Shown here piece after piece: positions 5,422 to 25,834 of a stretch of 25,893 bases of DNA. Position 1 is the first letter of the stretch. Each line of letters opens with the position of its first letter. Location of the stretch: the UHGV virus genome UHGV-1613375; one strand, written 5' to 3'. The notes beneath the pieces were generated by a model, which saw nothing but the letters and a program-made list of their open reading frames with translations, was not told where the DNA came from and made no database searches. A program made the position numbers and the translations under genes. The stretch is from a virus.

Positions 5422-5480
5422 GGGGCGGGTCAAATCCCTGTGACCTGACGTCTTCCGGACTGCCCGCCCCATCGTTTTTT
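5422..5480 (+). other. GC-rich inverted repeat GGGGCGGG / CCCGCCCC (33-nt loop) followed by T7; candidate cos/packaging region or terminator
   Basis: GGGGCGGG at 5422-5429 pairs with CCCGCCCC at 5463-5470, followed by ATCGTTTTTTT. Lies between the HNH gene and terS, where cos sits in HK97-like phages; GGGGCGGGTC loosely resembles the lambda cohesive end GGGCGGCGACCT (recalled). Confidence 0.35.
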
Positions 5481-5520
5481 TATACCCGCGAAAAATGAAA
5501 TTTAACCAGGAGTGCCGCAT

Positions 5521-6015
5521 ATGGCTGGAACGGCGGGGCGTTCCGGGCGTCGCCCCAAGCCAACGGCGCGCAAGGCGCTGGCCGGAAACCCCGGCAAGCG
5601 AGCCCTGAATAAAGATGAACCTGTTTTTACGCCCATCAAAGGTGTTGAGCCACCGGAGTGGTTCGCTGAAGAAGATCTCCCTCTCGCCACGATCATGTGG
5701 CAACTGACAACCAAAGAACTCTGTGGTCAGGGCCTGCTGTGCGTGACTGACCTCGCGGTGCTTGAGCGGTGGTGCGTGGCCTACGAGTTCTGGCGACGTG
5801 CCGTGAAAAATATTGCCAGACAGGGCAACACCATCATCGGTGCAATGGGCGGCAGGGTCAAAAATCCGGAGCTGACCGCCAAAAAAGAACAGGAGTCCGA
5901 GATGAACAGTACGGGGGCAATGCTCGGACTCGACCCCAGCAGCCGCCAGCGTCTGATTGGCCTGGCGGGGCAGAAGAAAGCCACTAACCCGTTTCTGAAA
6001 ATCATCGAATCATGA
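5521..6015 (+). CDS. Terminase small subunit (P27-family-like)
   Basis: SD AGGAG at 5508-5512 with ATG at 5521; the track's start at 5512 is GTG. Basic N-terminus; ATGA overlap with the large-subunit start. Confidence 0.7.
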
Positions 6016-7745
6016 GCCGGAAATCTTACCCCAACGTAAATGCTGCCAATCAGTATGCCCGTGATGTCGTGCGCGGAAAGATTGTGGCCTGCCAGTTTGT
6101 GATTCAGGCCTGCCAGCGCCATCTTGATGACCTGATGGAGGAAAAAAGTAAGTTGTTTCGTTACCGCTTCGACAAGGACCTGGCTGAACGGGCCGCGAAA
6201 TTTATTCAGCTGTTGCCGCACACCAAGGGTGAGTGGGCATTCAAGAGGATGCCCATCACGCTGGAGCCGTGGCAGCTCTTTGTGATCTGCTGTGCGTTTG
6301 GCTGGGTCAATAAAGGCTCCCGGCTGCGCCGCTTCAGGGAGGTGTATACCGAAATCCCTCGTAAGAACGGCAAATCGGCAATCTCTGCCGGTGTTGCCCT
6401 GTATTGTTTTGCCTGTGATAACGAGTTTGGCGCGGAAGTGTATTCCGGTGCCACGACAGAGAAACAGGCGTGGGAAGTCTTTCGCCCGGCTCGACTGATG
6501 TGTAAACGCACACCCATGCTGACGGAAGCGTTCGGGATTGAGGTTAACGCCTCAAACATGAACCGTCCGGAGGATGGCGCGCGGTTTGAACCGCTGATCG
6601 GTAACCCCGGTGATGGTTCATCACCCCACTGTGCGGTGGTGGATGAATATCACGAGCACGCCACCGATGCGCTTTATACCACGATGCTTACCGGGATGGG
6701 GGCGCGACGTCAGCCACTGATGTGGGCTATCACCACCGCCGGATACAACATTGAGGGGCCGTGCTACGACAAACGGCGGGAAGTCATCGAGATGCTCAAC
6801 GGTTCGGTACCCAACGATGAACTGTTCGGGATCATCTATACCGTTGATGAAGGTGATGACTGGACCGACCCGCAGGTGCTGGAAAAAGCCAATCCAAATA
6901 TTGGCGTGTCGGTTTATCGCGAATTTTTGTTAAGTCAGCAGCAGCGTGCGAAAAATAACGCCCGTCTGGCAAACGTCTTTAAAACAAAACACCTCAATAT
7001 CTGGGTGTCGGCGCGTTCGGCGTATTTCAACCTGGTGAGCTGGCAGAGCTGCGAGGATAAATCATTGACCCTTGAGCAGTTCGAGGGGCAGCCGTGCATT
7101 CTGGCCTTTGACCTGGCGCGTAAGCTGGATATGAACAGCATGGCGCGACTTTATACCCGCGAGATTGACGGTAAAACGCATTACTACAGTGTGGCCCCGC
7201 GTTTCTGGGTACCGTATGACACGGTGTACAGCGTCGAGAAAAATGAAGATCGACGGACAGCCGAACGCTTTCAGAAATGGGTGGAAATGGGCGTTCTGAC
7301 CGTTACCGATGGTGCGGAGGTGGATTATCGCTACATCCTCGAGGAGGCCAAAGCGGCGAACAAAATCAGCCCGGTCAGTGAGTCACCCATCGACCCCTTC
7401 GGGGCGACCGGGTTGTCACATGACCTTGCTGATGAAGACCTGAACCCCATCACTATCATTCAGAACTACACCAACATGTCCGATCCGATGAAAGAGCTGG
7501 AAGCGGCGATTGAATCGGGGCGCTTTCATCATGACGGCAATCCCATCATGACCTGGTGTATCGGCAACGTGGTCGGCAAAACCATTCCTGGTAACGATGA
7601 TGTGGTGAAGCCTGTCAAGGAGCAGGCGGAAAACAAAATCGATGGTGCGGTTGCACTGATTATGGCGATCGGTCGGGCAATGCTCAAAGAACCCGACGAT
7701 TTCCTCTCATCTCTTGATCCGGACGATGCTCTCTTAATTCTATGA
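6012..7745 (+). CDS. Terminase large subunit
   Basis: 577 aa in canonical position after TerS; ATPase plus nuclease-sized protein with acidic motifs ([16 protein letters not shown]) consistent with terminase. Confidence 0.85.
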
Positions 7746-7903
7746 AATCAATAATTGCTGATGTTATCGGGCTGGCTGGTTTTGGCCTGCTTACGTGCGG
7801 GTTTTACCTGCAGTTTGGTATGGCTCCGGCTCTGATGCTGTCCGGCGGTTTACTGCTGGTGGGCGCACTGGCTATGGCCAGAAGGGGGGCGCGTGCTGCT
7901 TGA
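7742..7903 (+). CDS. Small hydrophobic ORF (53 aa, two predicted TM helices) between terminase and portal
   Basis: ATG at 7742 overlaps the TerL stop (ATGA) and its TGA stop overlaps the portal start, suggesting translational coupling. Encodes [53 protein letters not shown]. Below the 60-aa cutoff of the ORF track. Confidence 0.35.
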
Positions 7904-9119
7904 TGCTCTGTTCAGAAGTAAATCACTGGAGAATCCTTCCACCCCGATAACCGGGGATGCCGTTGATACTGATGGGCTGTTCCGGGCAGACGTTTATGTC
8001 AGTCCTGAAACTGCGATGAAACTGGCTGCGGTGTATTCCTGTATCTATGTCCTGTCTTCCAGCCTTGCCCAGATGCCGTTGCATGTTATGCGCAGGCACA
8101 ATGGGAAGGTTGAGCCCGCACGCGATCATCCGGCGTTTTATCTGGTTCATGATGAGCCCAATACCTGGCAAACCAGTTACAAATGGCGCGAACTGAAGCA
8201 ACGTCACATCCTTGGCTGGGGAAATGGGTATACCTGGGTGAAACGTAATCGTCGCGGTGAAGTCATATCCCTGGATTGCTGTATGCCGTGGGAAACGACG
8301 CTGATGAATACTGGTGGCCGATACACCTACGGTTTGTACAACGAATATGGGGCGTTTGCGATCAGCCCCGACGATATGATCCACATCCGTGCGCTGGGTA
8401 ATAATCAGAAGATGGGGCTTAGTCCGATTATGCAACATGCCGAAACAATAGGCATGGGGATGAGCGGTCAGAAATACACAGAAAGCTTCTTCAGCGGTAA
8501 TGCCCGTCCGGCGGGGATAGTATCCGTTAAAAGCGGACTCAATAAGGACAGCTGGGGCTGGCTTAAAGATCAGTGGCAGAAGGCATCGCAGGCGTTACGC
8601 AGCCAGGAAAACAAAACCATGCTGCTGCCAGCCGATCTGGATTACAAGGCACTGACTGTGTCGCCAGTTGACGCTCAAATCATTGACATGATGAAACTGA
8701 ACCGTTCAATGATTGCCGGTATTTTCAATATTCCTGCGCACATGATTAATGACCTGGAAAAAGCCACATTTTCGAATATTACACAGCAGGCGATTCAGTT
8801 TGTTCGCTACACGATGATGCCCTGGGTTGCGAACTGGGAGCAGGAGCTTAACCGTCGCCTGTTTACCCGTACAGAACGGGCTGCCGGGTATTACGTTCGT
8901 TTCAACCTCACGGGGTTGCTCCGTGGGACCCCACAGGAGCGTGCGCAGTTCTATCACTTTGCCATTACAGATGGCTGGATGAGCCGGAATGAAGCGAGGG
9001 CATTTGAGGACATGAACCCGGTTGATGGTCTGGATGAAATGCTGGTCAGCGTAAATGCAGCAAATCCGTTGAATGATTTTAAAGATACGAAAGGCAAAGA
9101 GGAAAAGAACGATGAATGA
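7893..9119 (+). CDS. Portal protein (HK97 family)
   Basis: 408 aa after the terminase; N-terminal LLDALFRS...AMKLAAVYSCI...HVMRR resembles HK97-family portals. Start is probably GTG at 7893. Confidence 0.85.
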   Translation: MLLDALFRSKSLENPSTPITGDAVDTDGLFRADVYVSPETAMKLAAVYSCIYVLSSSLAQMPLHVMRRHNGKVEPARDHPAFYLVHDEPNTWQTSYKWRELKQRHILGWGNGYTWVKRNRRGEVISLDCCMPWETTLMNTGGRYTYGLYNEYGAFAISPDDMIHIRALGNNQKMGLSPIMQHAETIGMGMSGQKYTESFFSGNARPAGIVSVKSGLNKDSWGWLKDQWQKASQALRSQENKTMLLPADLDYKALTVSPVDAQIIDMMKLNRSMIAGIFNIPAHMINDLEKATFSNITQQAIQFVRYTMMPWVANWEQELNRRLFTRTERAAGYYVRFNLTGLLRGTPQERAQFYHFAITDGWMSRNEARAFEDMNPVDGLDEMLVSVNAANPLNDFKDTKGKEEKNDE

Positions 9120-9711
9120 CCGTGAGACGCGCTGTTACAGCGGGGAAGTGCGGGCAGAACAATATGATAATGCCCCGACCCACATTCTGGGGTATGGCTC
9201 GGTATTTAACAGTCGTTCAGAACCTCTGTGGGGATTTCGTGAAATCATCAAGCCGGGGGCTTTTGACGATGTACTGAATGATGATGTACGTGGCTTGTTT
9301 AATCATGATCCTAATTTCATTCTCGGACGAAGTTCTGCCGGCACGTTGTCATTGTCGGTGGATGAACGCGGTTTACGTTATGACATTGTTGCACCGGATA
9401 CTCCGACTATTTGTGACCTGGTGCTGTCTCCAATGTTGCGTGGTGACATTAATCAGTCCTCGTTCGCGTTTCGTGTCGCCCGTGACGGAGAGAGCTGGTA
9501 TGAAGACGACGAGGGGATTGTTATCCGGGAAATCACGCGCATTTCTCGTCTGTATGATGTCAGCCCGGTGACATATCCGGCCTATCAGGACGCAGACTCT
9601 GGTGTCCGCTCAATGAAAGCCTGGCAGGAAGCGCGGGCGAGTGGTGCGCTGAAGAAAGCTGTTAACGAACGAATGGCGCGTGAGCGCCTTTTGACCCTTC
9701 TTAATGCATAA
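9112..9711 (+). CDS. Prohead maturation protease (HK97 family)
   Basis: ATG at 9112 overlaps the portal stop. Size and position match the HK97 protease; motifs HILGYGS, FNHD. Confidence 0.8.
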   Translation: MNDRETRCYSGEVRAEQYDNAPTHILGYGSVFNSRSEPLWGFREIIKPGAFDDVLNDDVRGLFNHDPNFILGRSSAGTLSLSVDERGLRYDIVAPDTPTICDLVLSPMLRGDINQSSFAFRVARDGESWYEDDEGIVIREITRISRLYDVSPVTYPAYQDADSGVRSMKAWQEARASGALKKAVNERMARERLLTLLNA

Positions 9712-9725
9712 GGATACTACTGACG

Positions 9726-10943
9726 ATGAAACTTCATGAGATGAAGCAAAAACGAAACACCATTGCAAAGGATATGCGTGCACTGCATGAAAAAATTGGT
9801 GATAACGCATGGACTGATGAGCAGCGGGCAGAGTGGAACAGGGCGAAAGCTGAGCTGGATGCGCTGGATGAGCAAATCGCCCGTGAAGAAGAGTTGCGCC
9901 GTCAGGATCAGGAATATGTGGATGAGTCCGGGCCGGAAGAGCGCCAGAATAATGAGGCGGAGAACGGGAAAAAGGCGGTGGAAGAGAAGCGCGCTGCGGC
10001 ATTTAACCGTTTTCTGCGTGCCGGATTTGCAGAACTGAATGCTGAAGAGCGTAATCTGATGCGTGAACTGAGGGCTCAGAGTGTAACAACGGATTCTCAG
10101 GGCGGATATACGGTGCCCACGCAGATGCGTAACAAAATCATTGACACCATGAAGGCTTATGGCGGGATTGCCAGTGTGGCGCAACTTCTGACCACATCAA
10201 CCGGGCAGGATATCACCTGGTCAACGTCTGATGGCACGACTGAAGAGGGCGAACTGCTGGCGGAAAATACAGCCGCAACGGAACAGGATGTGACGTTCGG
10301 GACCGCTATTCTGGGGGCTAAAAAGCTGTCATCAAAAATAATTCGTGTGTCCAATGAGCTGCTCCAGGACAGTGGGGTGGATATTGAATCTTATCTGGCA
10401 AACCGTATTGCCCAGCGTATTGGTCGTGGAGAGGCGAAATATCTGGTTCAGGGGACCGGAACTGGATCACCGTTACAGCCAAAAGGGCTGGCAGCGTCGG
10501 TGACGGGAACCATCCAGACTGCAGCCTCTGCCGCTTTCACCTGGAAAGAAATGAATGCTCTGAAACATGCCATTGATCCGGCATATCGTGGTGGGCCGAA
10601 ATACCGCTGGGCATTCAATGATGCCACATTGCAAACTATTGAAGAGATGGAGGATGGACAGAAACGCCCGTTATGGCTGCCGGATATTGCAGGCGGTACG
10701 CCAGCTACTGTGCTGGGGATCCCTTATGTTATTGATCAGGCTATTGACGGGATTGGTACCGGAAAAAAATTCATTTTCCTGGGGGATTTCAACCGCTTTA
10801 TCATTCGCCGCGTTACTTATATGGAACTGAAACGTCTGGTTGAGCGTTATGCTGAGTTTGATCAGGTGGCATTTCTGGCTTTCCATCGTTTTGACTGTGT
10901 GCTGGAAGATGTGGCAGCCATCAAGGCGCTCACTGGAAAATAA
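9726..10943 (+). CDS. Major capsid protein (HK97 fold) with N-terminal coiled-coil delta domain
   Basis: 405 aa; charged, coiled-coil-like N-terminal ~100 aa followed by a capsid-like body; followed by a strong terminator. Confidence 0.85.
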   Translation: MKLHEMKQKRNTIAKDMRALHEKIGDNAWTDEQRAEWNRAKAELDALDEQIAREEELRRQDQEYVDESGPEERQNNEAENGKKAVEEKRAAAFNRFLRAGFAELNAEERNLMRELRAQSVTTDSQGGYTVPTQMRNKIIDTMKAYGGIASVAQLLTTSTGQDITWSTSDGTTEEGELLAENTAATEQDVTFGTAILGAKKLSSKIIRVSNELLQDSGVDIESYLANRIAQRIGRGEAKYLVQGTGTGSPLQPKGLAASVTGTIQTAASAAFTWKEMNALKHAIDPAYRGGPKYRWAFNDATLQTIEEMEDGQKRPLWLPDIAGGTPATVLGIPYVIDQAIDGIGTGKKFIFLGDFNRFIIRRVTYMELKRLVERYAEFDQVAFLAFHRFDCVLEDVAAIKALTGK

Positions 10944-10963: not shown

Positions 10964-10987
10964 GACCGCGCCGACGCGGTTTTTTTA
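10964..10987 (+). terminator. Rho-independent terminator after the major capsid gene
   Basis: ACCGCG(10965-10970) / CGCGGT(10975-10980), loop CCGA, then TTTTTT. A second 7-bp hairpin GCCCGCA / TGCGGGC (10989-11008) sits just before the SD AGGAGG of the next gene. Confidence 0.75.
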
Positions 10988-11751: not shown

Positions 11752-12232
11752 TGTTCAGCAGCCCGCGGAGATGCGCTTTAACCGCGCCCGTGTCCGGCGG
11801 GCGTTTGTCACGATTGGGCAGCGTCATATGCGTGATGCCCGTCGGCTGGTGATGCGCCGTGCGCGGTCGGCACCGGGTGAAAACCCCGGTTATCAGACCG
11901 GACGCCTGGCTCGTTCGATTGGTTACATGGTGCCGAGAGCCAGTAAAAAGCGAGCCGGTTTTATGACACGCATTGCCCCTAACCAGCGCAACGGTAAGGG
12001 GAACCGGATGATCTCTGGTGACTTCTATCCGGCGTTTCTGTTTTTTGGTGTCCGGGGAGGAGCAAAACGTCGTCGTAGTCATCATCGTGGTGCATCCGGT
12101 GGCAGCGGCTGGCGGCTGGCTCCACGTAATAACTTTATGGTGGAAACGCTTGAAAAGAACCGCAGCTGGACACGCTATTTTCTGGCGCGGGAATTGCGTA
12201 AATCACTGAAGCCGGAGCGACGACACAGATGA
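11726..12232 (+). CDS. Tail completion protein (HK97 gp10-like)
   Basis: SD GGAGG at 11715-11719; 168-aa basic protein in the neck-gene position. Confidence 0.55.
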   Translation: MATPFFHVDVQQPAEMRFNRARVRRAFVTIGQRHMRDARRLVMRRARSAPGENPGYQTGRLARSIGYMVPRASKKRAGFMTRIAPNQRNGKGNRMISGDFYPAFLFFGVRGGAKRRRSHHRGASGGSGWRLAPRNNFMVETLEKNRSWTRYFLARELRKSLKPERRHR

Positions 12233-12789
12233 AACTGACGCCTGTTATTGCTGCGCTGCGTGTCCGCTGCCCGTATTTTGAAAACCGGGTGGCAGGCGCG
12301 GCCCAGTTCAAAAATCTGCCGGAGGTCGGAAAGCTGAAACTCCCGGCGGCGTATGTGGTACCGGGGGATGATTCTCCGGGAGAAAACAAAAGCCAGACCG
12401 ACTACTGGCAGGAGCTGAAAGAGGGCTTCTCCGTGGTTGTCATACTGAGTAACGGGCGTGATGAGCGCGGTCAGTTTGCCTCGTATGATGTGGTGGACGA
12501 TGTCCGGCAGATGCTCTTTAAGGCCCTGCTGGGCTGGAACCCGGAAGCGTGCGGTAACCCGATTACCTATGACGGCGGCACGCTGCTGGATCTGAATCGT
12601 CATGAGCTGATTTATCAGTTCGATTTTTCGGTCATCAGCGAGCTGACTGAAGACGATACCCGCCAGCTGGATGATCTGAACAGTCTGGATGAACTGCAAA
12701 CGCTGGCGATTGATGTTGATTATCTCGATCCCGGTAACGGGCCTGACGGCGATATCGAACATCACACCGAAATAACCCTTCCTTCCTGA
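12229..12789 (+). CDS. Putative tail terminator / neck protein
   Basis: ATGA overlap with the upstream gene; 186 aa, last neck-position gene before the sheath. Function inferred from position only. Confidence 0.4.
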   Translation: MKLTPVIAALRVRCPYFENRVAGAAQFKNLPEVGKLKLPAAYVVPGDDSPGENKSQTDYWQELKEGFSVVVILSNGRDERGQFASYDVVDDVRQMLFKALLGWNPEACGNPITYDGGTLLDLNRHELIYQFDFSVISELTEDDTRQLDDLNSLDELQTLAIDVDYLDPGNGPDGDIEHHTEITLPS

Positions 12790-12797
12790 GGATCCTC

Positions 12798-12968
12798 ATG
12801 TTTGTCAAACCTGTTAAAGGGCGGTCAGTGCCTGACCCTGCCCGCGGCGACCTTTTGCCCGCCGAAGGGCGAAATGTTGACGAGAACAACTACTGGCTGC
12901 GTCGTGAAGCAGCGGGTGATATCCGGCGCGTGAATAAAAAGGTGAACACCGATGACGATAAGCTTTAA
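12798..12968 (+). CDS. Small ORF (56 aa) immediately upstream of and overlapping the sheath gene
   Basis: SD GAGGA at 12788-12792, 5 nt before the ATG. Encodes MFVKPVKGRSVPDPARGDLLPAEGRNVDENNYWLRREAAGDIRRVNKKVNTDDDKL and overlaps the sheath start by 17 nt. Below the track's size cutoff. Confidence 0.4.
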   Translation: MFVKPVKGRSVPDPARGDLLPAEGRNVDENNYWLRREAAGDIRRVNKKVNTDDDKL

Positions 12969-14448
12969 CACCATTCCGTCGAATACGCTGGTTCCGCTGT
13001 TTTATGCGGAAATGGATAACCAGGCGGCGAATACTGCACAGGACAGCGGAGCATCGCTGCTGATTGGTCATGCCAATAACGGTGCAGAGATTGTTGCCAA
13101 CAGTCTGGTGCTGATGCCGTCGGCAGACTATGCACGCCAGATTTGTGGTGCGGGAAGTCAGCTGGCGCGTATGGTCGAGGCTTATCGCCAGACTGACCCG
13201 TTTGGCGAGCTGTATGTGATTGCCGTTCCGGAAGCCACAGGCGCGGCGGCAACGGTTACGCTGACGGTGACCGGGGAGGCAACCGAAACCGGCACGGTGA
13301 ATGTTTATGTGGGACGTACCCGCGTGCAGGCACCGGTGACCAACGGCGATAACGTCGCGACGATTGCCAGCAGTATCAAAGATGCCATCAATGCCGTTCC
13401 GACCCTGCCGTTTACTGCCTCATCTTCGGCAGGCGTGGTCACACTGACCGCGCGTCATAAGGGGCTTTGCGGGAATGAAATTCCTGTCAGCCTCAATTAC
13501 TACGGCTTTGGTGGGGGCGAAGTGCTGCCAGCGGGCGTACAGATTGCCGTGGCGACGGGGAACGCCGGAACGGGCGCTCCTGTTCTCACCGGCGCGGTGG
13601 CTGCAATGGCGGATGAGCCGTTTGATTATATCGGCCTGCCGTTCAACGACACGGCCTCCGTTAACACGCTGGTGACCGAGATGAACGATACCAGCGGTCG
13701 CTGGAGCTATGCGCGTCAGCTGTATGGTCATGTGTATACGGCAAAGATCGGCACGCTGTCAGAACTGGTGACCGCAGGTGACCAGTTTAACCAGCAGCAC
13801 ATTACCCTGGCGGGGTACGAAAAAGAGACCCAGACGCCTGCCGACGAGCTGGCGGCAAGCCGTACCGCCCGCGCAGCGGTGTTTATTCGCAACGATCCGG
13901 CACGTCCCACGCAGACCGGTGAGCTGGTGGGTATGCTGCCTGCGCCGAAGGGGAAACGGTTCACGATGACCGAACAACAGACCCTGCTGTCTCATGGCGT
14001 GGCAACGGCGTATGTCGAAAGCGGGGTGCTGCGCATTCAGCGTGATGTCACCACGTACAGGAAAAACGCTTACGGTGTTGCGGATAACAGCTACCTCGAC
14101 AGCGAGACGCTGCATACCAGCGCGTATGTGCTGCGCAAACTGAAATCCGTCATTACCAGTAAGTACGGGCGTCACAAGCTTGCCAGCGACGGTACCCGCT
14201 TTGGTCCCGGTCAGGCGATTGTCACCCCGGCGGTGATCAAAGGGGAACTGCTGGCAACCTACCGTCAGCTTGAGCGTGCGGGGATCGTGGAAAACTACGA
14301 ACTGTTTAAGCAGTACCTGGTTGTGGAGCGTGATGCCAGCGATCCGAACCGCCTGAACACGCTGTTCCCGCCTGACTATGTTAACCAGTTGCGTGTCTTT
14401 GCCGTGGTTAACCAGTTCCGTCTTCAGTATTCAGAGGAGTCTGCATAA
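12952..14448 (+). CDS. Tail sheath protein (Mu gpL-like)
   Basis: 498 aa, the size and position of a contractile-tail sheath, immediately followed by the tube gene with a TAATG overlap. Confidence 0.8.
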   Translation: MTISFNTIPSNTLVPLFYAEMDNQAANTAQDSGASLLIGHANNGAEIVANSLVLMPSADYARQICGAGSQLARMVEAYRQTDPFGELYVIAVPEATGAAATVTLTVTGEATETGTVNVYVGRTRVQAPVTNGDNVATIASSIKDAINAVPTLPFTASSSAGVVTLTARHKGLCGNEIPVSLNYYGFGGGEVLPAGVQIAVATGNAGTGAPVLTGAVAAMADEPFDYIGLPFNDTASVNTLVTEMNDTSGRWSYARQLYGHVYTAKIGTLSELVTAGDQFNQQHITLAGYEKETQTPADELAASRTARAAVFIRNDPARPTQTGELVGMLPAPKGKRFTMTEQQTLLSHGVATAYVESGVLRIQRDVTTYRKNAYGVADNSYLDSETLHTSAYVLRKLKSVITSKYGRHKLASDGTRFGPGQAIVTPAVIKGELLATYRQLERAGIVENYELFKQYLVVERDASDPNRLNTLFPPDYVNQLRVFAVVNQFRLQYSEESA

Positions 14449-14804
14449 TGGCCCGTATCGGGGGAACCTGTTATTTCAAAATTGACGGTCAGCAGCTATC
14501 GCTGACCGGCGGCATTGAGGTGCCCATGAACAGGACGGTAAATGATGACATCATCGGCCTGGACGGTTCAGTGGACCGCAAGGAAACTCACCGTGCACCT
14601 TATGTCAAAGGGACCTTCAAGGTGCCGAAGAATTTTCCGGTGAGCAAAATCACCTCGTCTGATGAGATGACCATCACTGCCGAGCTGGCGAACGGTCAGG
14701 TCTATGTATTGTCGTCTGCCTGGCTGCACGGTGAAGCGAACCATAATGCCGAAGAAGGCACGGTTGATCTTGAGTTCCACGGTGAAGAAGGGGATTACCA
14801 GTGA
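14448..14804 (+). CDS. Tail tube protein (Mu gpM-like)
   Basis: 118 aa directly after the sheath. Confidence 0.7.
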   Translation: MARIGGTCYFKIDGQQLSLTGGIEVPMNRTVNDDIIGLDGSVDRKETHRAPYVKGTFKVPKNFPVSKITSSDEMTITAELANGQVYVLSSAWLHGEANHNAEEGTVDLEFHGEEGDYQ

Positions 14805-15124
14805 TTGAGCTTGTACTTAAAAAACCGATCATCGCCCACAAAGAAACACTGCATGTGCTGGAAATACGTGAGCCTACGTATGACGAGATTGAGGCGCTGG
14901 GGTTCCCTTTCTCTGTTTCGCCTGATGGTGGTATGAAAATGGACAGTCAGGTGGCGCTGAAATATATCCCGCTTCTGGCCGGGATCCCGCGCTCGTCTGC
15001 AGCGCAGATGACGAAGCTGGATATTTTCAAGGCAGGCATGATTGTAATGCGTTTTTTTACCGGCTTGGAGACGGAAGAGACCTCCGGAAGCGATTCTACA
15101 ATGTCGCGTGGTTCTGGAAATTAA
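14801..15124 (+). CDS. Tail assembly chaperone (0-frame product); probable -1 frameshift extension to 15216
   Basis: GTG start overlapping the tube stop; 107 aa between tube and tape measure. A TTTTTTT run at 15052-15058 and an open -1 frame through 15216 give the classic chaperone G/GT arrangement. Confidence 0.65.
   Translation: MIELVLKKPIIAHKETLHVLEIREPTYDEIEALGFPFSVSPDGGMKMDSQVALKYIPLLAGIPRSSAAQMTKLDIFKAGMIVMRFFTGLETEETSGSDSTMSRGSGN
15052..15058 (+). other. Candidate -1 programmed ribosomal frameshift slippery heptamer T_TTT_TTT
   Basis: Zero-frame codons CGT TTT TTT ACC. The -1 frame is open from 14884 to the TGA at 15214-15216, giving the fusion tail ...FFYRLGDGRDLRKRFYNVAWFWKLNPLELRRTAISHFADLEAEAVRINEEMKHG. 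Confidence 0.5.
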
Positions 15125-15208
15125 ACCCCCTTGAACTTCGCAGGACGGCTATTTCCCACTTTGCTGATCTGGAGGCAGAGGCCGTCCGTATAAATGAGGA
15201 GATGAAGC

Positions 15209-17110
15209 ATGGCTGATAATTTTCAGCTGAAAGCCATCATCACCGCCGTTGACAGGCTGTCCGGCCCGCTTAAAGGTATGCAGCGTCAGCTTAAGGGGTT
15301 TCAGAAAGAAGTCTCCAGCCTTGCTCTGGGCGCTGCCGGGGCGGGTACTGCAATAATGGGGGCACTGGCACTCCCTGTAAAATCAGCCATCACCCTTGAA
15401 TCGAAGATGGCTGATGTCCGCAAAGTGGTGGACGGTCTGGATACGCCGGATGCGTTTAAGGCCATGACGGAGCAGGTACGCGCTTTGTCTACTGAGCTTC
15501 CCATGTCTGCAGACGGGATCGCGGAAATTGTGGCGGCTGGCGGTCAGGCCGGGATTGCACGTGATGAACTGATGCAGTTTGCCACTGATGCGGTGAAGAT
15601 GGGCGTGGCCTTTGATACCACGGCTGAAGAGTCCGGGCAGATGATGGCCCAGTGGCGTACTGCGTTTAATATGACGCAGGATGAAGTGGCTGGGCTGGCT
15701 GACAAAATCAACTACCTTGGTAATACCGGCCCGGCGAATGCGAAGAAAATCTCCGATATTGTTACGCGTATTGGTCCTTTAGGTGGTGTTGCAGGTGTGG
15801 CTTCCGGCGAAATCGCGGCAATGGGGGCAACCATTGCCGGGATGGGCGTGGAGTCAGAAATTGCCGCCACAGGGATCAAGAACTTCATGCTTTCCCTGAC
15901 CGCGGGAAATTCAGCGACAAAATCGCAGAAACAGGCATTACGTTTTCTGCGGATCAATCCGAAGAAATTAGCTGCTGATATGCAGAAAGATGCCCGGGGA
16001 ACCATGCTGTCTGTACTGGATGCGATGGCTAAAGTGCCTAAAGAAAAACAGGCAGCTGTGCTGAATGCCCTGTTCGGGAAAGAGTCTCTGGGCGCGATAG
16101 CACCTCTGCTGACTAACCTTGATTTGTTGCGTACCAACTTCAGGCGGGTTGCGGATTCCCAGCAGTATGGCAGTTCGATGCAGAAGGAATATGCTTCGAG
16201 GGCAGCGACGACGGAAAACCAGCTTTTACTTCTGCAAAATCAACTTGATGCCATTTCTTCCACTCTGGGGGAAACGTTTCTTCCTGAGGTTAATGATGGT
16301 CTTGAAGCGGTAAAACCGCTCCTTGAGGAAGTGAGAACGTTTGTCCGTGAAAACCCGGAGCTCGTTAAGACCATTGCTAAAATCGGTCTGGCTTTACTGA
16401 CAGTGGGGGCCGCTGCAGGCTCTTTGTCCAGAATCATGAAAGTTCTCGGCGGTGTGATGAATATGACGCCTGCTAAGGGTCTGATTGCTCTTCTGGTCGG
16501 TGCCGCTTACCTCATTATTGATAACTGGGAAACCGTAGGTCCTGTCATAAAAAAAGTCTGGCGCGTGGTGGATGAAACGGCGCAGGCGATGGGGGGATGG
16601 GAAACTGTTCTGAAAGCGATCGCCCTGTTTATGACAACCAAATGGGTTGCTGACGTTACCAAATCCATTACCGCAGTGACCAGAGAGATGCGTACGCTGG
16701 GGAAGGTGTCGGCAGAAACGGGATTGATGGGGAAAGGCCGCGGCTTTATCGGGAAGGCCGGGGTATATGGTTTTCTGGGAACCCTGATGTATGAGCCGGT
16801 TAAAGATACTCTGGAAAGTGTTGTTCCTGAAGATACAGTTAACTGGCTGGATAATAAAGGGCTGTTTCTGGCTTCAGACTGGACGCCTTTTTTTGATCGT
16901 AAAGAGTACGAGCAGTATCAGGCCAGCCTGAGTCAGTACAAACCCAATGTTCCGCTGTTGAATCCATCTTCTTCCATGACACAGCACAGCGAACTGAAAG
17001 TCACGTTCGAGAATGCTCCGCCAGGCATGAAGATAATTGATGTACCGGGCAAAGCCGATCCCCTGATGAAAATCACGCACGATGTGGGGTATTCTCCATT
17101 CAGGCGATAA
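15209..17110 (+). CDS. Tail tape measure protein
   Basis: 633 aa with Ala/Gly-rich helical and hydrophobic segments, located after the chaperone; SD GAGGAG upstream. Confidence 0.85.
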   Translation: MADNFQLKAIITAVDRLSGPLKGMQRQLKGFQKEVSSLALGAAGAGTAIMGALALPVKSAITLESKMADVRKVVDGLDTPDAFKAMTEQVRALSTELPMSADGIAEIVAAGGQAGIARDELMQFATDAVKMGVAFDTTAEESGQMMAQWRTAFNMTQDEVAGLADKINYLGNTGPANAKKISDIVTRIGPLGGVAGVASGEIAAMGATIAGMGVESEIAATGIKNFMLSLTAGNSATKSQKQALRFLRINPKKLAADMQKDARGTMLSVLDAMAKVPKEKQAAVLNALFGKESLGAIAPLLTNLDLLRTNFRRVADSQQYGSSMQKEYASRAATTENQLLLLQNQLDAISSTLGETFLPEVNDGLEAVKPLLEEVRTFVRENPELVKTIAKIGLALLTVGAAAGSLSRIMKVLGGVMNMTPAKGLIALLVGAAYLIIDNWETVGPVIKKVWRVVDETAQAMGGWETVLKAIALFMTTKWVADVTKSITAVTREMRTLGKVSAETGLMGKGRGFIGKAGVYGFLGTLMYEPVKDTLESVVPEDTVNWLDNKGLFLASDWTPFFDRKEYEQYQASLSQYKPNVPLLNPSSSMTQHSELKVTFENAPPGMKIIDVPGKADPLMKITHDVGYSPFRR

Positions 17111-17139: not shown

Positions 17140-17174
17140 GAGTGGTAAAGTTTGTGCTGAATGTAGGAGAGAAT

Positions 17175-17663
17175 ATGAAGAAAATGTTTATATTGTTGTT
17201 GGCTGCAGGACTGCCATTAAACTCCTTTGCGAAGCCAGTAACGGAAAAGCAGCTTGCTACATACTTTATAGATAACGTTAAAACTTCAGCAGATAAGAAT
17301 ATAGATCTAGATGTAGGTGGAATAAATAGACTGTCTGTAATATGCCCAGCAAAGTCGGCAAGTGGAACTCTTTTAATAAAAAAAGCATCCTACGAGTTTA
17401 ATAAAGGTATTGGTGTTTTTGATTTTGAAAATAACTCACAATCTGCACCATTGGCTTTTATTGTACCAATTAGTGAGGATGAAAATAACTTTGACTCGGA
17501 AATTATTGGTTTCTCTTTTGCATTTAAAATGCCAAGAGGGCAATTCTTTGTTGATGTTACGAAATCAGGGAAGGTAAAGGCTGGCGTAAATATTAGTGGT
17601 GAAAGCGGAATTACTTATTCATCATGTAGAATAGATACTCATAATGTTGATTATGATCTTTAA
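17175..17663 (+). CDS. Predicted secreted/periplasmic protein of unknown function (AT-rich cargo gene inside the tail module)
   Basis: SD AGGAG at 17165-17169, 5 nt before the ATG; the track's upstream start at 17142 is less likely. N-terminal signal peptide MKKMFILLLAAGLPLNSFA with probable SPase I site after SFA; two Cys in the mature part. Strongly AT-rich (by eye); followed by a strong terminator. Confidence 0.7.
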   Translation: MKKMFILLLAAGLPLNSFAKPVTEKQLATYFIDNVKTSADKNIDLDVGGINRLSVICPAKSASGTLLIKKASYEFNKGIGVFDFENNSQSAPLAFIVPISEDENNFDSEIIGFSFAFKMPRGQFFVDVTKSGKVKAGVNISGESGITYSSCRIDTHNVDYDL

Positions 17664-25177: not shown

Positions 25178-25834
25178 ATCATGCATTTTATGCTGCGATT
25201 ATGCGTTCTCCTGTTGTTTGTTGCTGAGAGTGAAACACCGGAAACATACTGGTGGATTGAAATGTTCTGTGTGGCAGCGTATGAATATGTCGTGGTAGGG
25301 TGGATAAAAAATGCCCGTGATGATCCGGGCAACATAGCAGTATGCATTTTTCTATTGTGAACTGATGCATTATACAAGTAATGCTGTTATTGAGGAAAGT
25401 TTAAAGAAGCGGCTCTTCTCCGCCTGTAAAGTTTGGTCATTATTGCTTTATATATAAGTTCCACCAGTAGGCGATCATCTATGATGTTGGCATATCGACT
25501 TTGTATAAGAGGTTTCCGGTCGGAGATAAATGAAACCGTAGCACGTCGTATGCAAGAACGTGCCACGGCTGGCTGGCGAACTTTCGATAGTGCGAGTATT
25601 GAATGATTTCCAGCTGTTACTGATTTTATATAACTGCAGTGGAATTATTCAACACACAGGCAAAACGGAATAAGCTGAGAAAAAAAAGCGTGCTTTCCCA
25701 ATCTGGGGTAAATCACATCTGAATGACACCTGAAAACAGGTGGTGGCCTCAAGAAGGCTTGGAATATTCTTCTTTAATGTTATGTAATTTATTGATTGAG
25801 CCTGTTCAGGATTCTGTGTAAATACCTTTTCTCA

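Follow-up and report, generated by a model that had tools for sequence, protein, structure and literature searches.

A conserved U_UUU_UUU heptamer and an open −1 frame point to a frameshifted tail assembly chaperone in SfIV/phiP27/ST64B-type prophages

The DNA analyzed here is a 25,893-nucleotide (nt) stretch of the virus genome UHGV-1613375, below referred to as the window. The element is an Escherichia coli prophage of the SfIV/phiP27/ST64B type with a Mu-like contractile tail, and the tail genes considered below lie on its plus strand. The tail sheath gene (12952–14448; Pfam Phage_sheath_1, Phage_sheath_1C, and Phage_sheath_domII, E = 1e-33) is followed by the tail tube gene (14448–14804; Pfam Tail_tube PF10618, E = 2e-33), whose stop codon overlaps, in the sequence GTGA, the GTG start codon of a gene for a 107–amino acid (aa) protein (14801–15124, stop codon at 15122–15124). 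The next gene encodes the tape measure protein (15209–17110; Pfam PhageMin_Tail, E = 2e-42). It begins with an ATG at 15209, 7 nt downstream of the sequence GAGGAG (15196–15201), its putative Shine-Dalgarno (SD) sequence. The order of tube gene, 107-aa gene, and tape measure gene is the placement found for G/GT-type tail assembly chaperones.

The 107-aa protein matches Pfam family PF10109 (Phage_TAC_7), to which P2 gpE and Mu gp41 belong, scoring 32.1 bits where the curated gathering cutoff is 25 (E = 1.2e-7); the match covers residues 5 to 86 of the protein and positions 3 to 78 of the 79-position profile. The protein also matches phrog_166, “tail protein” (E = 4e-22), and RefSeq contains the same 14801–15124 coding sequence (CDS) under the name “phage tail assembly protein.” No matching model was found in NCBIfam, and neither a sequence match nor a fold match was found among solved structures. 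In an AF2 model, the N-domain has pLDDT values of 82 to 95, and the viral folds closest to it are tape-measure/tail assembly chaperones, with Mu FS-gp41 among the structural neighbors. Judged by its position and the PF10109 match, the gene encodes a tail assembly chaperone, the G-like or P2 gpE-like product of the zero frame.

Codons 84 to 86 of this gene contain a run of seven Ts (15052–15058). As the earlier note had proposed, it is read as TTT TTT in the zero frame: the codons CGT (15050–15052), TTT (15053–15055), and TTT (15056–15058), followed by ACC, place the run in the X_XXY_YYZ register of a slippery heptamer, U_UUU_UUU. In the −1 frame, no stop codon interrupts the sequence between 14926 and a TGA at 15214–15216. 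The note had located this stop correctly, 92 nt past the zero-frame stop and within the first codons of the tape measure gene (8 nt past the start of its ATG), but had placed the beginning of the open frame at 14884, missing a TGA at 14923–14925. The −1 open reading frame (ORF) spans the zero-frame stop, with 65 codons upstream and 31 downstream of it; no other of the window's 28 genes has so long an upstream overlap, and those that rank next have 43 and 22 codons. The last nucleotides of the −1 ORF are shared with the tape measure gene, whose first 8 nt are ATGGCTGA, and the putative SD sequence lies inside its final codons.

A −1 shift at the heptamer would re-read T15058 and add an extension of 52 codons and a TGA (15058–15216), T-like or E′-like, with the translation YRLGDGRDLRKRFYNVAWFWKLNPLELRRTAISHFADLEAEAVRINEEMKHG. 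The predicted GT-like fusion, join(14801..15058,15058..15216), is a protein of 15.9 kDa with a pI of 8.9; translation gives a length of 138 aa, not the 139 aa expected before, and reproduces the junction peptide MRFFYRLGDG suggested for detection. Peptides obtained by translation of the fusion are AGMIVMRFFYRLGDGRDLRK and, within the extension, FYNVAWFWK and LNPLELR; the tryptic junction piece, FFYR, is short. The extension is basic (pI 9.4), and the short chaperone, with an expected mass of ~11.7 kDa, has a pI of 5.3 and ends, beyond the shift site, in an unconstrained acidic tail of 21 residues. The AF2 prediction for the extension is of low confidence (pLDDT <50); the extension is probably helical.

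The heptamer by itself is not significant, since 32% of shuffled versions of the chaperone gene contain an in-register X_XXY_YYZ heptamer and nine A/T runs of at least 7 nt occur in the window. The significance of the site comes from its conservation and from the coding signature of the −1 frame. Among 5,426 complete genomes of E. coli, ~212 have this exact variant. The exact T7 allele was found in 148 complete-genome records and exact T6 or T8 alleles in none; a sequencing error behind the two frames was rejected on the strength of the 148 exact T7 records against zero exact T8.

To assess conservation, we used a set of 174 related loci (70 distinct sequences) from three chaperone lineages, the SfIV/phiP27/ST64B-type, the SfV-type, and the Yersinia YeP1-type, whose chaperones share 25 to 47% identity with each other. 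A search of genome contigs for related chaperone loci yielded only six loci. The earlier note would have counted a lack of conservation in related prophages against its proposal; an in-register T_TTT_TTY (T_TTT_TTT or T_TTT_TTC) is present in 171 of the 174 loci, whose −1 ORFs end 5 to 10 nt within the tape measure gene, and the −1 ORF is open in all 174. Three SfV-type loci have a weaker G_TTT_TTY. The base preceding the two Phe codons is a wobble T that is retained while the codon it belongs to specifies Arg, Asn, or Gly. Fixation of this T while the encoded amino acid changes indicates that selection acts on the heptamer at the nucleotide level.

The region downstream of the heptamer carries a frame-specific signature of selection. 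In the 84-nt “intergenic” gap between the chaperone and tape measure genes, the −1 frame has a pN/pS of 0.195 and the two others have values of 1.39 and 2.90; for the whole extension, the corresponding values are 0.26 compared to 1.1 and 1.8. Where the zero and −1 frames overlap, pN/pS is 0.35 in the −1 frame and 0.92 in the zero frame. Variable columns in the nonoverlapping part are distributed 9/4/24 over the three codon positions of the −1 frame. By these substitution patterns, the 84-nt gap evolves as coding sequence in the −1 frame only. At the protein level, residues L9, A17, W20, N23, P24, A42, R44, I45, and E48 of the extension are invariant over the three lineages, and this peptide motif is shared by lineages whose DNA no longer aligns. 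The anatomy of the sequence, its conservation, and its coding signature are direct observations, as is the missing independent start described below.

The earlier note had also suggested a search for a downstream stimulatory structure. None that is stable or conserved was found: the minimum free energy of region 15059–15140 is no better than that of shuffled sequences (z = +0.75), and in an RNAalifold consensus computed from six diverged relatives downstream of the heptamer, the covariation term is 0. On these grounds, we rejected a structured RNA stimulator. No SD-like stimulator located 6 to 17 nt upstream of the heptamer is conserved across the relatives. The absence of a downstream stimulator is normal for this class of frameshift and has likewise been reported for P2. 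According to reporter data in the supplement of PMC4066793, U_UUU_UUU directs −1 shifting in E. coli at 0.33% when unstimulated and at 10% with a pseudoknot; the P2-type U_UUU_UUG gives 0.12%, which is below the value for U_UUU_UUU. Since no stimulator is conserved, reporter data alone predict only ~0.3% shifting at the site. In a literature list, H_HH.U_UU.Y ranks among the most efficient shift motifs of E. coli.

Such a low rate would fit an arrangement without recoding, where the −1 ORF is conserved yet untranslated, either as a gene relic or because of constraint from the ribosome-binding site (RBS) of the tape measure gene, and only the 107-aa protein is made. The final ~20 nt of the −1 ORF do hold the tape measure SD sequence and start codon, and none of the public records that we examined annotates a joined or fusion CDS. 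However, an RBS cannot explain third-position–dominated variation with a pN/pS of 0.20 over the full 84-nt gap. The persistence of the peptide motif where the DNA no longer aligns, the retention of the heptamer at the nucleotide level, and the −1 ORF being open in 174 of 174 loci also argue against an untranslated frame, which we consider very unlikely. The extension could instead be a separate small protein initiated at a noncanonical start, as annotations of phage small ORFs imply. Its match to phrog_32181 (63 positions, unknown function; E = 4.5e-6) indicates that some annotators called it as a stand-alone ORF. However, the −1 frame contains no ATG, GTG, or TTG between 14926 and 15202, where the first such codon appears only 4 codons before the stop; the only other candidates, ATA, ATT, and CTG, all lack an upstream SD sequence; and the conserved peptide begins directly at the heptamer in all lineages. 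On the evidence of its codons, the −1 ORF is not able to initiate independently, and a stand-alone extension is extremely unlikely.

The fusion could also arise during transcription, if RNA polymerase (RNAP) added one U on the T7 run. According to Sharma et al., UUUUUUU is underrepresented in all three frames of E. coli genes, possibly as a result of RNAP slippage. Translation of a U8 mRNA would give the identical MRFFYRLG, so the ribosomal and transcriptional routes are inseparable at the protein level. A/T homopolymers are known to cause RNAP slippage, which is substantial at runs of ~9 or more A/T; runs of 5 to 6 are too short for slippage to be appreciable. In contrast to sites of this kind, where the homopolymer is typically at least 9 nt long and independent of register, the run has 7 Ts here, and the same system is kept with only six (T_TTT_TTC) in SfV-type, Pantoea, and Edwardsiella relatives and five (G_TTT_TTC) in some. 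The codon register, which matters to ribosomes but not to RNAP, is fixed, being the same in the three lineages and in P2. Transcriptional slippage as the main route is therefore quite unlikely.

An experimentally based precedent is E/E+E′ of P2, where a −1 shift takes place at ggT_TTT_TTG, yielding products of 91 and 142 aa; gene T is overlapped by 8 nt, and a downstream hairpin is missing (Christie et al. 2002, as cited in PMC3091744; annotated in NC_001895). Both phages have contractile tails and the gene order sheath, tube, chaperone, and tape measure, and the chaperone N-domains belong to the same Pfam family, PF10109. [quoted passage not shown] The final base of the heptamer is G in P2, T here, and C in SfV-type relatives. 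The proteins differ more: their pairwise similarity is not significant (BLASTP E = 0.13), the extension is acidic in P2 (pI 4.9) in contrast to the basic one here, and the short form continues for 6 residues past the shift site in P2 compared to 21 here. The extension had no match in Pfam, including PF06528 (Phage_P2_GpE), even at E ≤ 10, and an hhalign comparison with P2 E′ gave a probability of 1.6%, although aromatic-W...P-x-E-L motifs align. A scan of viral contigs for diverse relatives of P2 E′ returned only copies 99 to 100% identical to P2 gpE. None of the comparisons of the extension with P2 E′, the Mu extension, or PF06528 reached significance, and homology to them was rejected.

With lambda, which makes gpG and gpGT by −1 frameshifting at G_GGA_AAG (Levin et al. 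1993; Xu et al. 2004, 2013, 2014, as summarized in PMC5009743), the likeness lies in strategy and inferred function. As that account describes lambda, two chaperones with a common N terminus are made in a fixed ratio from a gene between the major tail protein and tape measure genes, and a stimulatory structure is not required. However, the lambda tail is noncontractile, the heptamer and the protein families differ (no Pfam overlap was found), and T is a full downstream ORF rather than a short extension ending in the tape measure start. Mu has the closest tail module overall, sharing Mu-like sheath, tube, DUF2635, DNA-circulation, and gp44/P hub genes; its gp41 belongs to the same Pfam family, and a frameshift product, FS-gp41, is catalogued (UniProt P0DJY4). 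In contrast to the situation here, the Mu extension is read in the −2/+1 frame with respect to gp41 (Xu et al., cited in PMC2628397, give the shift as “−2”), and Mu has no T-run heptamer; gp41, at 144 aa, contains insertions and is 25% identical to the chaperone described here. A Mu-type −2 (+1) shift does not fit this locus, where it is the −1 frame that holds the conserved ORF and the +1 frame runs only as far as 15134.

Together, the PF10109 match and gene position, conservation, frame-specific selection, lack of a start codon, and P2-like layout support the G/GT-type reading with which the analysis began, and we consider it highly likely that −1 ribosomal frameshifting produces both a G-like and a GT-like chaperone from this gene. 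Each computational test capable of refuting this reading came out in its favor. The slippage event, its efficiency, and the division of labor between the two parts of the long protein are what we infer. The majority of ribosomes would stop at 15122–15124 and release the short G-like protein. A minority would slip on U_UUU_UUU (15052–15058), where the two tRNA-Phe on UUU UUU would re-pair one base back, and would then read UAC CGG and the following codons in the −1 frame. These ribosomes would end at the UGA at 15214–15216, giving the 138-aa GT-like protein, composed of residues 1 to 86, common to the short form, and the basic 52-residue extension. If the roles parallel those in lambda G/GT and P2 E/E+E′, the domain common to both forms would coat the tape measure protein and the extension would recruit the tube protein; the frameshift rate would set the ratio of short to long form, and virions would be expected to contain neither.

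This is an ordinary, well-supported, and unsurprising case of a known chaperone frameshift of long-tailed phages, left unannotated by database records in this E. coli prophage group, whose members include SfIV, SfV, SfI, SfII, phiP27, and ST64B. Nothing on this gene was found in the literature on SfIV, SfV, and ST64B and frameshifting that we covered, a set that did not extend to the Xu et al. 2004 survey and the SfV genome paper. The known “frameshift mutation” of ST64B is a different event, lying in SB21, another tail gene. The main value of the result is for annotation: RefSeq and GenBank records of this widespread prophage group lack the 138-aa product and label 84 coding nt as intergenic, which a ribosomal_slippage CDS would mend. 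Mu-like-tail phages use at least two recoding solutions in one chaperone family, the −1 T-run described here and the −2 shift of Mu; the two-product outcome is conserved and the mechanism is not, which raises no new question.

From P2 through this group, the −1 ORF ends inside the tape measure start and contains the SD sequence of the tape measure gene. Through this overlap, ribosomes that have shifted frame might terminate and then re-initiate on the tape measure gene in a coupled manner, as a cis-acting stoichiometry device beyond compact packing; if this unlikely proposal were true, the rare long chaperone would be made beside, and in step with, the nascent tape measure protein. In rare natural alleles, the fusion is hard-wired as a single uninterrupted ORF, either by a T5 run, as in the DNA of the P0001 allele, or by a 1-nt insertion further downstream; a T6 run would lead into the +1 frame. 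For the natural fusion-only allele of Shigella flexneri, a prophage with defective tails would be predicted. Given the T5 and insertion alleles, the T-run may possibly also serve as an on/off switch by which mutation controls tail production.

The stretch carries a prophage morphogenesis region, with gene identities taken from the annotation of its ORFs: small terminase (5512-6015), large terminase (6012-7745), portal (7893-9119), S78 prohead protease (9073-9711), HK97-type capsid (9726-10943), tail terminator (12229-12789), sheath (12952-14448, + strand), tube (14448-14804, +), a 107-amino acid (aa) chaperone gene (14801-15124, +), and tape measure (15209-17110, +), together with a Mu-like DNA-circulation gene, gp44/P hub, baseplate J, and a tail fibre with an S74 chaperone domain. 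A 1.1-kb segment containing the heptamer is 100% identical to many E. coli chromosomes, 99% identical to Shigella phage SfIV, and 74-78% identical to phiP27 and ST64B. In SfV, SfI, and SfII, similarity does not extend into the chaperone gene, where these phages have a diverged allele. The proposed identity as a tail assembly chaperone is supported: the 107-aa protein lies above the gathering score of Pfam Phage_TAC_7 (PF10109, “tail assembly chaperone proteins E, or 41 or 14”), matches phrog_166, and is named “phage tail assembly protein” in RefSeq.

The earlier note proposed −1 frameshifting at a T7 run. The run is present at 15052-15058, and its zero-frame codons (CGT TTT TTT ACC) place it as U_UUU_UUU in the X_XXY_YYZ register that tandem −1 slippage needs. 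The −1 frame ends at the TGA at 15214-15216, as claimed, but is open from 14926 rather than 14884, since a TGA at 14923-14925 had been overlooked. Translation of join(14801..15058,15058..15216) reproduces the predicted junction ...MRFFYRLGDG... and gives 138 aa instead of about 139, and the extension does end within the tape-measure start, its stop lying 8 nt into that gene (ATGGCTGA). By itself the heptamer is unremarkable; an in-register X_XXY_YYZ occurs in 32% of shuffles of the chaperone gene, and A/T runs of at least 7 nt occur nine times in the window. The other runs are T7 at 5475-5481, 10980-10986, and 16888-16894; A7 at 1470-1476, 10763-10769, 16549-16555, and 17378-17384; and A8 at 25680-25687. 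The −1 ORF spanning the chaperone stop has the longest upstream overlap among the window’s 28 genes.

Conservation of the site was assessed in annotated relatives (phiP27, ST64B, SfV, Pantoea AH07, Edwardsiella EPP-1, and Yersinia YeP1) and in 166 loci drawn from collections of genome and viral contigs. T_TTT_TTT or T_TTT_TTC is found in register at Phe-Phe codons in 171 of 174 loci (70 distinct sequences), and the −1 ORFs of these loci end 5 to 10 nt into the tape-measure gene. The pattern spans three chaperone lineages with just 25-47% protein identity. The preceding codon encodes Arg, Asn, or Gly depending on the lineage, and its third base is T throughout; selection here is on the nucleotide and not the residue. 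Extension peptides align without gaps between lineages, with invariant L9, A17, W20, N23, P24, A42, R44, I45, and E48 and the motif Y-[ND]-x-A-x-[FY]-W-[KR]-x-N-P. The remaining three loci have G_TTT_TTY: in L035, L066, and L072 (SfV-type), a synonymous GGT to GGG change converts T_TTT_TTY to this form, which should weaken P-site re-pairing, and these may be low-frameshift or decaying prophages. In the SfV-type viral contig L033, the −1 ORF diverges past “...NPFELLN”, about 90 nt after the heptamer, and continues for >1 kb into unrelated coding sequence, indicating a probable rearrangement or insertion breakpoint within the extension.

Among ten diverged SfIV/phiP27/ST64B-type sequences, pN/pS in the 84-nt “intergenic” stretch was 0.195 in the −1 frame compared to 1.39 and 2.90 in the other two, with 9, 4, and 24 variable columns at the three codon positions. 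From the heptamer to the zero-frame stop, constraint was stronger in the −1 frame (0.35) than in the zero frame (0.92). The short form’s 21-residue C-terminal tail, which shows no purifying selection in its own frame, is thus essentially free to vary, and its sequence is dictated by the overlapping −1 frame. In the window, this tail (15059-15124, +) is TGLETEETSGSDSTMSRGSGN, with a pI of 4.05. The short-form-specific tail shrinks to 3 to 7 residues in SfV- and YeP1-type genes (3 in SfV-type).

The best explanation, and a very probable one, is ribosomal −1 frameshifting at the heptamer: tandem −1 slippage on U_UUU_UUU (15052-15058) would yield the 138-aa fusion. Transcriptional slippage to a U8 mRNA would encode an identical protein, but relatives with five- and six-T versions and the fixed codon register speak against it, and we consider it improbable. 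The first ATG, GTG, or TTG of the −1 frame is at 15202, four codons ahead of its stop, so the conserved extension peptide can be reached only from the chaperone frame. That the −1 ORF is a non-translated relic is very unlikely, and independent initiation of the extension slightly more so; both readings conflict with the pN/pS signature and the lack of a start codon.

The search for a downstream stimulatory structure that the earlier note suggested found none: nothing stable or conserved was detected (z = +0.75 versus shuffles, covariation term 0), nor was any Shine-Dalgarno (SD)-like element conserved upstream of the heptamer among related loci. P2 and its relatives are reported to lack stimulators likewise (PMC3091744). 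Reporter assays in E. coli put shifting on U_UUU_UUU at 0.33% without a stimulator and at 10% when a pseudoknot is present; for both U_UUU_UUC and P2’s U_UUU_UUG the unstimulated value is 0.12% (PMC4066793 supplement). Since frameshift efficiency in P2 and related phages is nevertheless 2- to 3-fold above that of lambda (PMC5009743, review), native context evidently matters.

The likeness to the G/GT strategy holds for P2, where an annotated −1 shift at ggT_TTT_TTG yields E and E+E′ (91 and 142 aa) and the E+E′ ORF likewise ends 8 nt into gene T, the same geometry as in the window. The tail genes of Mu are closest overall, and its extension is in the −2/+1 frame, given as “−2 in Mu” in PMC2628397, citing Xu et al. 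The extension is basic in the window (pI 9.4) but acidic in P2, and has no significant similarity to P2 E′, the Mu extension, or Pfam PF06528; its function is therefore assigned by analogy, as a putative counterpart of lambda gpT. An AlphaFold model built with 49 homologues is confident for N-domain residues 1-88 (pLDDT 82-95) and predicts a helical extension at low confidence. In fold, the closest viral proteins are tape-measure and tail assembly chaperones, Mu FS-gp41 among them; a PDB fold search gave no match.

This kind of frameshift is textbook. None of the records and papers searched describes or annotates it for SfIV/SfV/phiP27/ST64B-type phages; the survey of Xu et al. 2004 may well include SfV, P27, or ST64B. 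The main value is an annotation fix for the chaperone fusion of this phage group.

Among 5,426 complete E. coli genomes, 212 contain an 81-nt probe sequence, in 213 records altogether; 148 of these records carry the exact T7 allele and none an exact T6 or T8 allele. In two kinds of allele, the fusion is encoded by a single uninterrupted ORF. T5 alleles (L257-L261, protein P0001), with two T’s fewer, hard-wire it with a single Phe; they occur on a few contigs, and split or truncated tube genes in three of the five suggest that they are probably homopolymer sequencing errors rather than real alleles. A Shigella flexneri phiP27-like allele (L262-L264; proteins P0003-P0007) keeps T7 and carries one extra G 30 nt downstream (CCGGAAAC to CCGGGAAAC), permanently joining the short form to the extension (142 aa). 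Present in hundreds of samples (754 indexed collection blocks), among them the complete genome LR861788.1, this allele predicts a prophage that makes only the fusion and is probably tail-defective.

Two other ORFs deserve mention. A 173-aa ORF (17142-17663, +), flanked by the tape-measure gene and the DNA-circulation-like gene, lies in an AT-rich island (GC 33-36% versus about 52% in the flanks). Its N terminus, MKKMFILLLAAGLPLNSFAKP, resembles a Sec signal peptide. The ORF matches phrog_5586 (“unknown function”, E = 3e-82) and no Pfam family, and resembles a moron (cargo gene) inserted into the tail operon. The second, a 463-aa ORF (1492-2883, +), lies upstream of the terminase genes; it matches AAA_16, AAA_22, and, weakly, nSTAND1 (E from 8e-10 to 1e-4), and could be a STAND-type NTPase or defence gene carried by the prophage.
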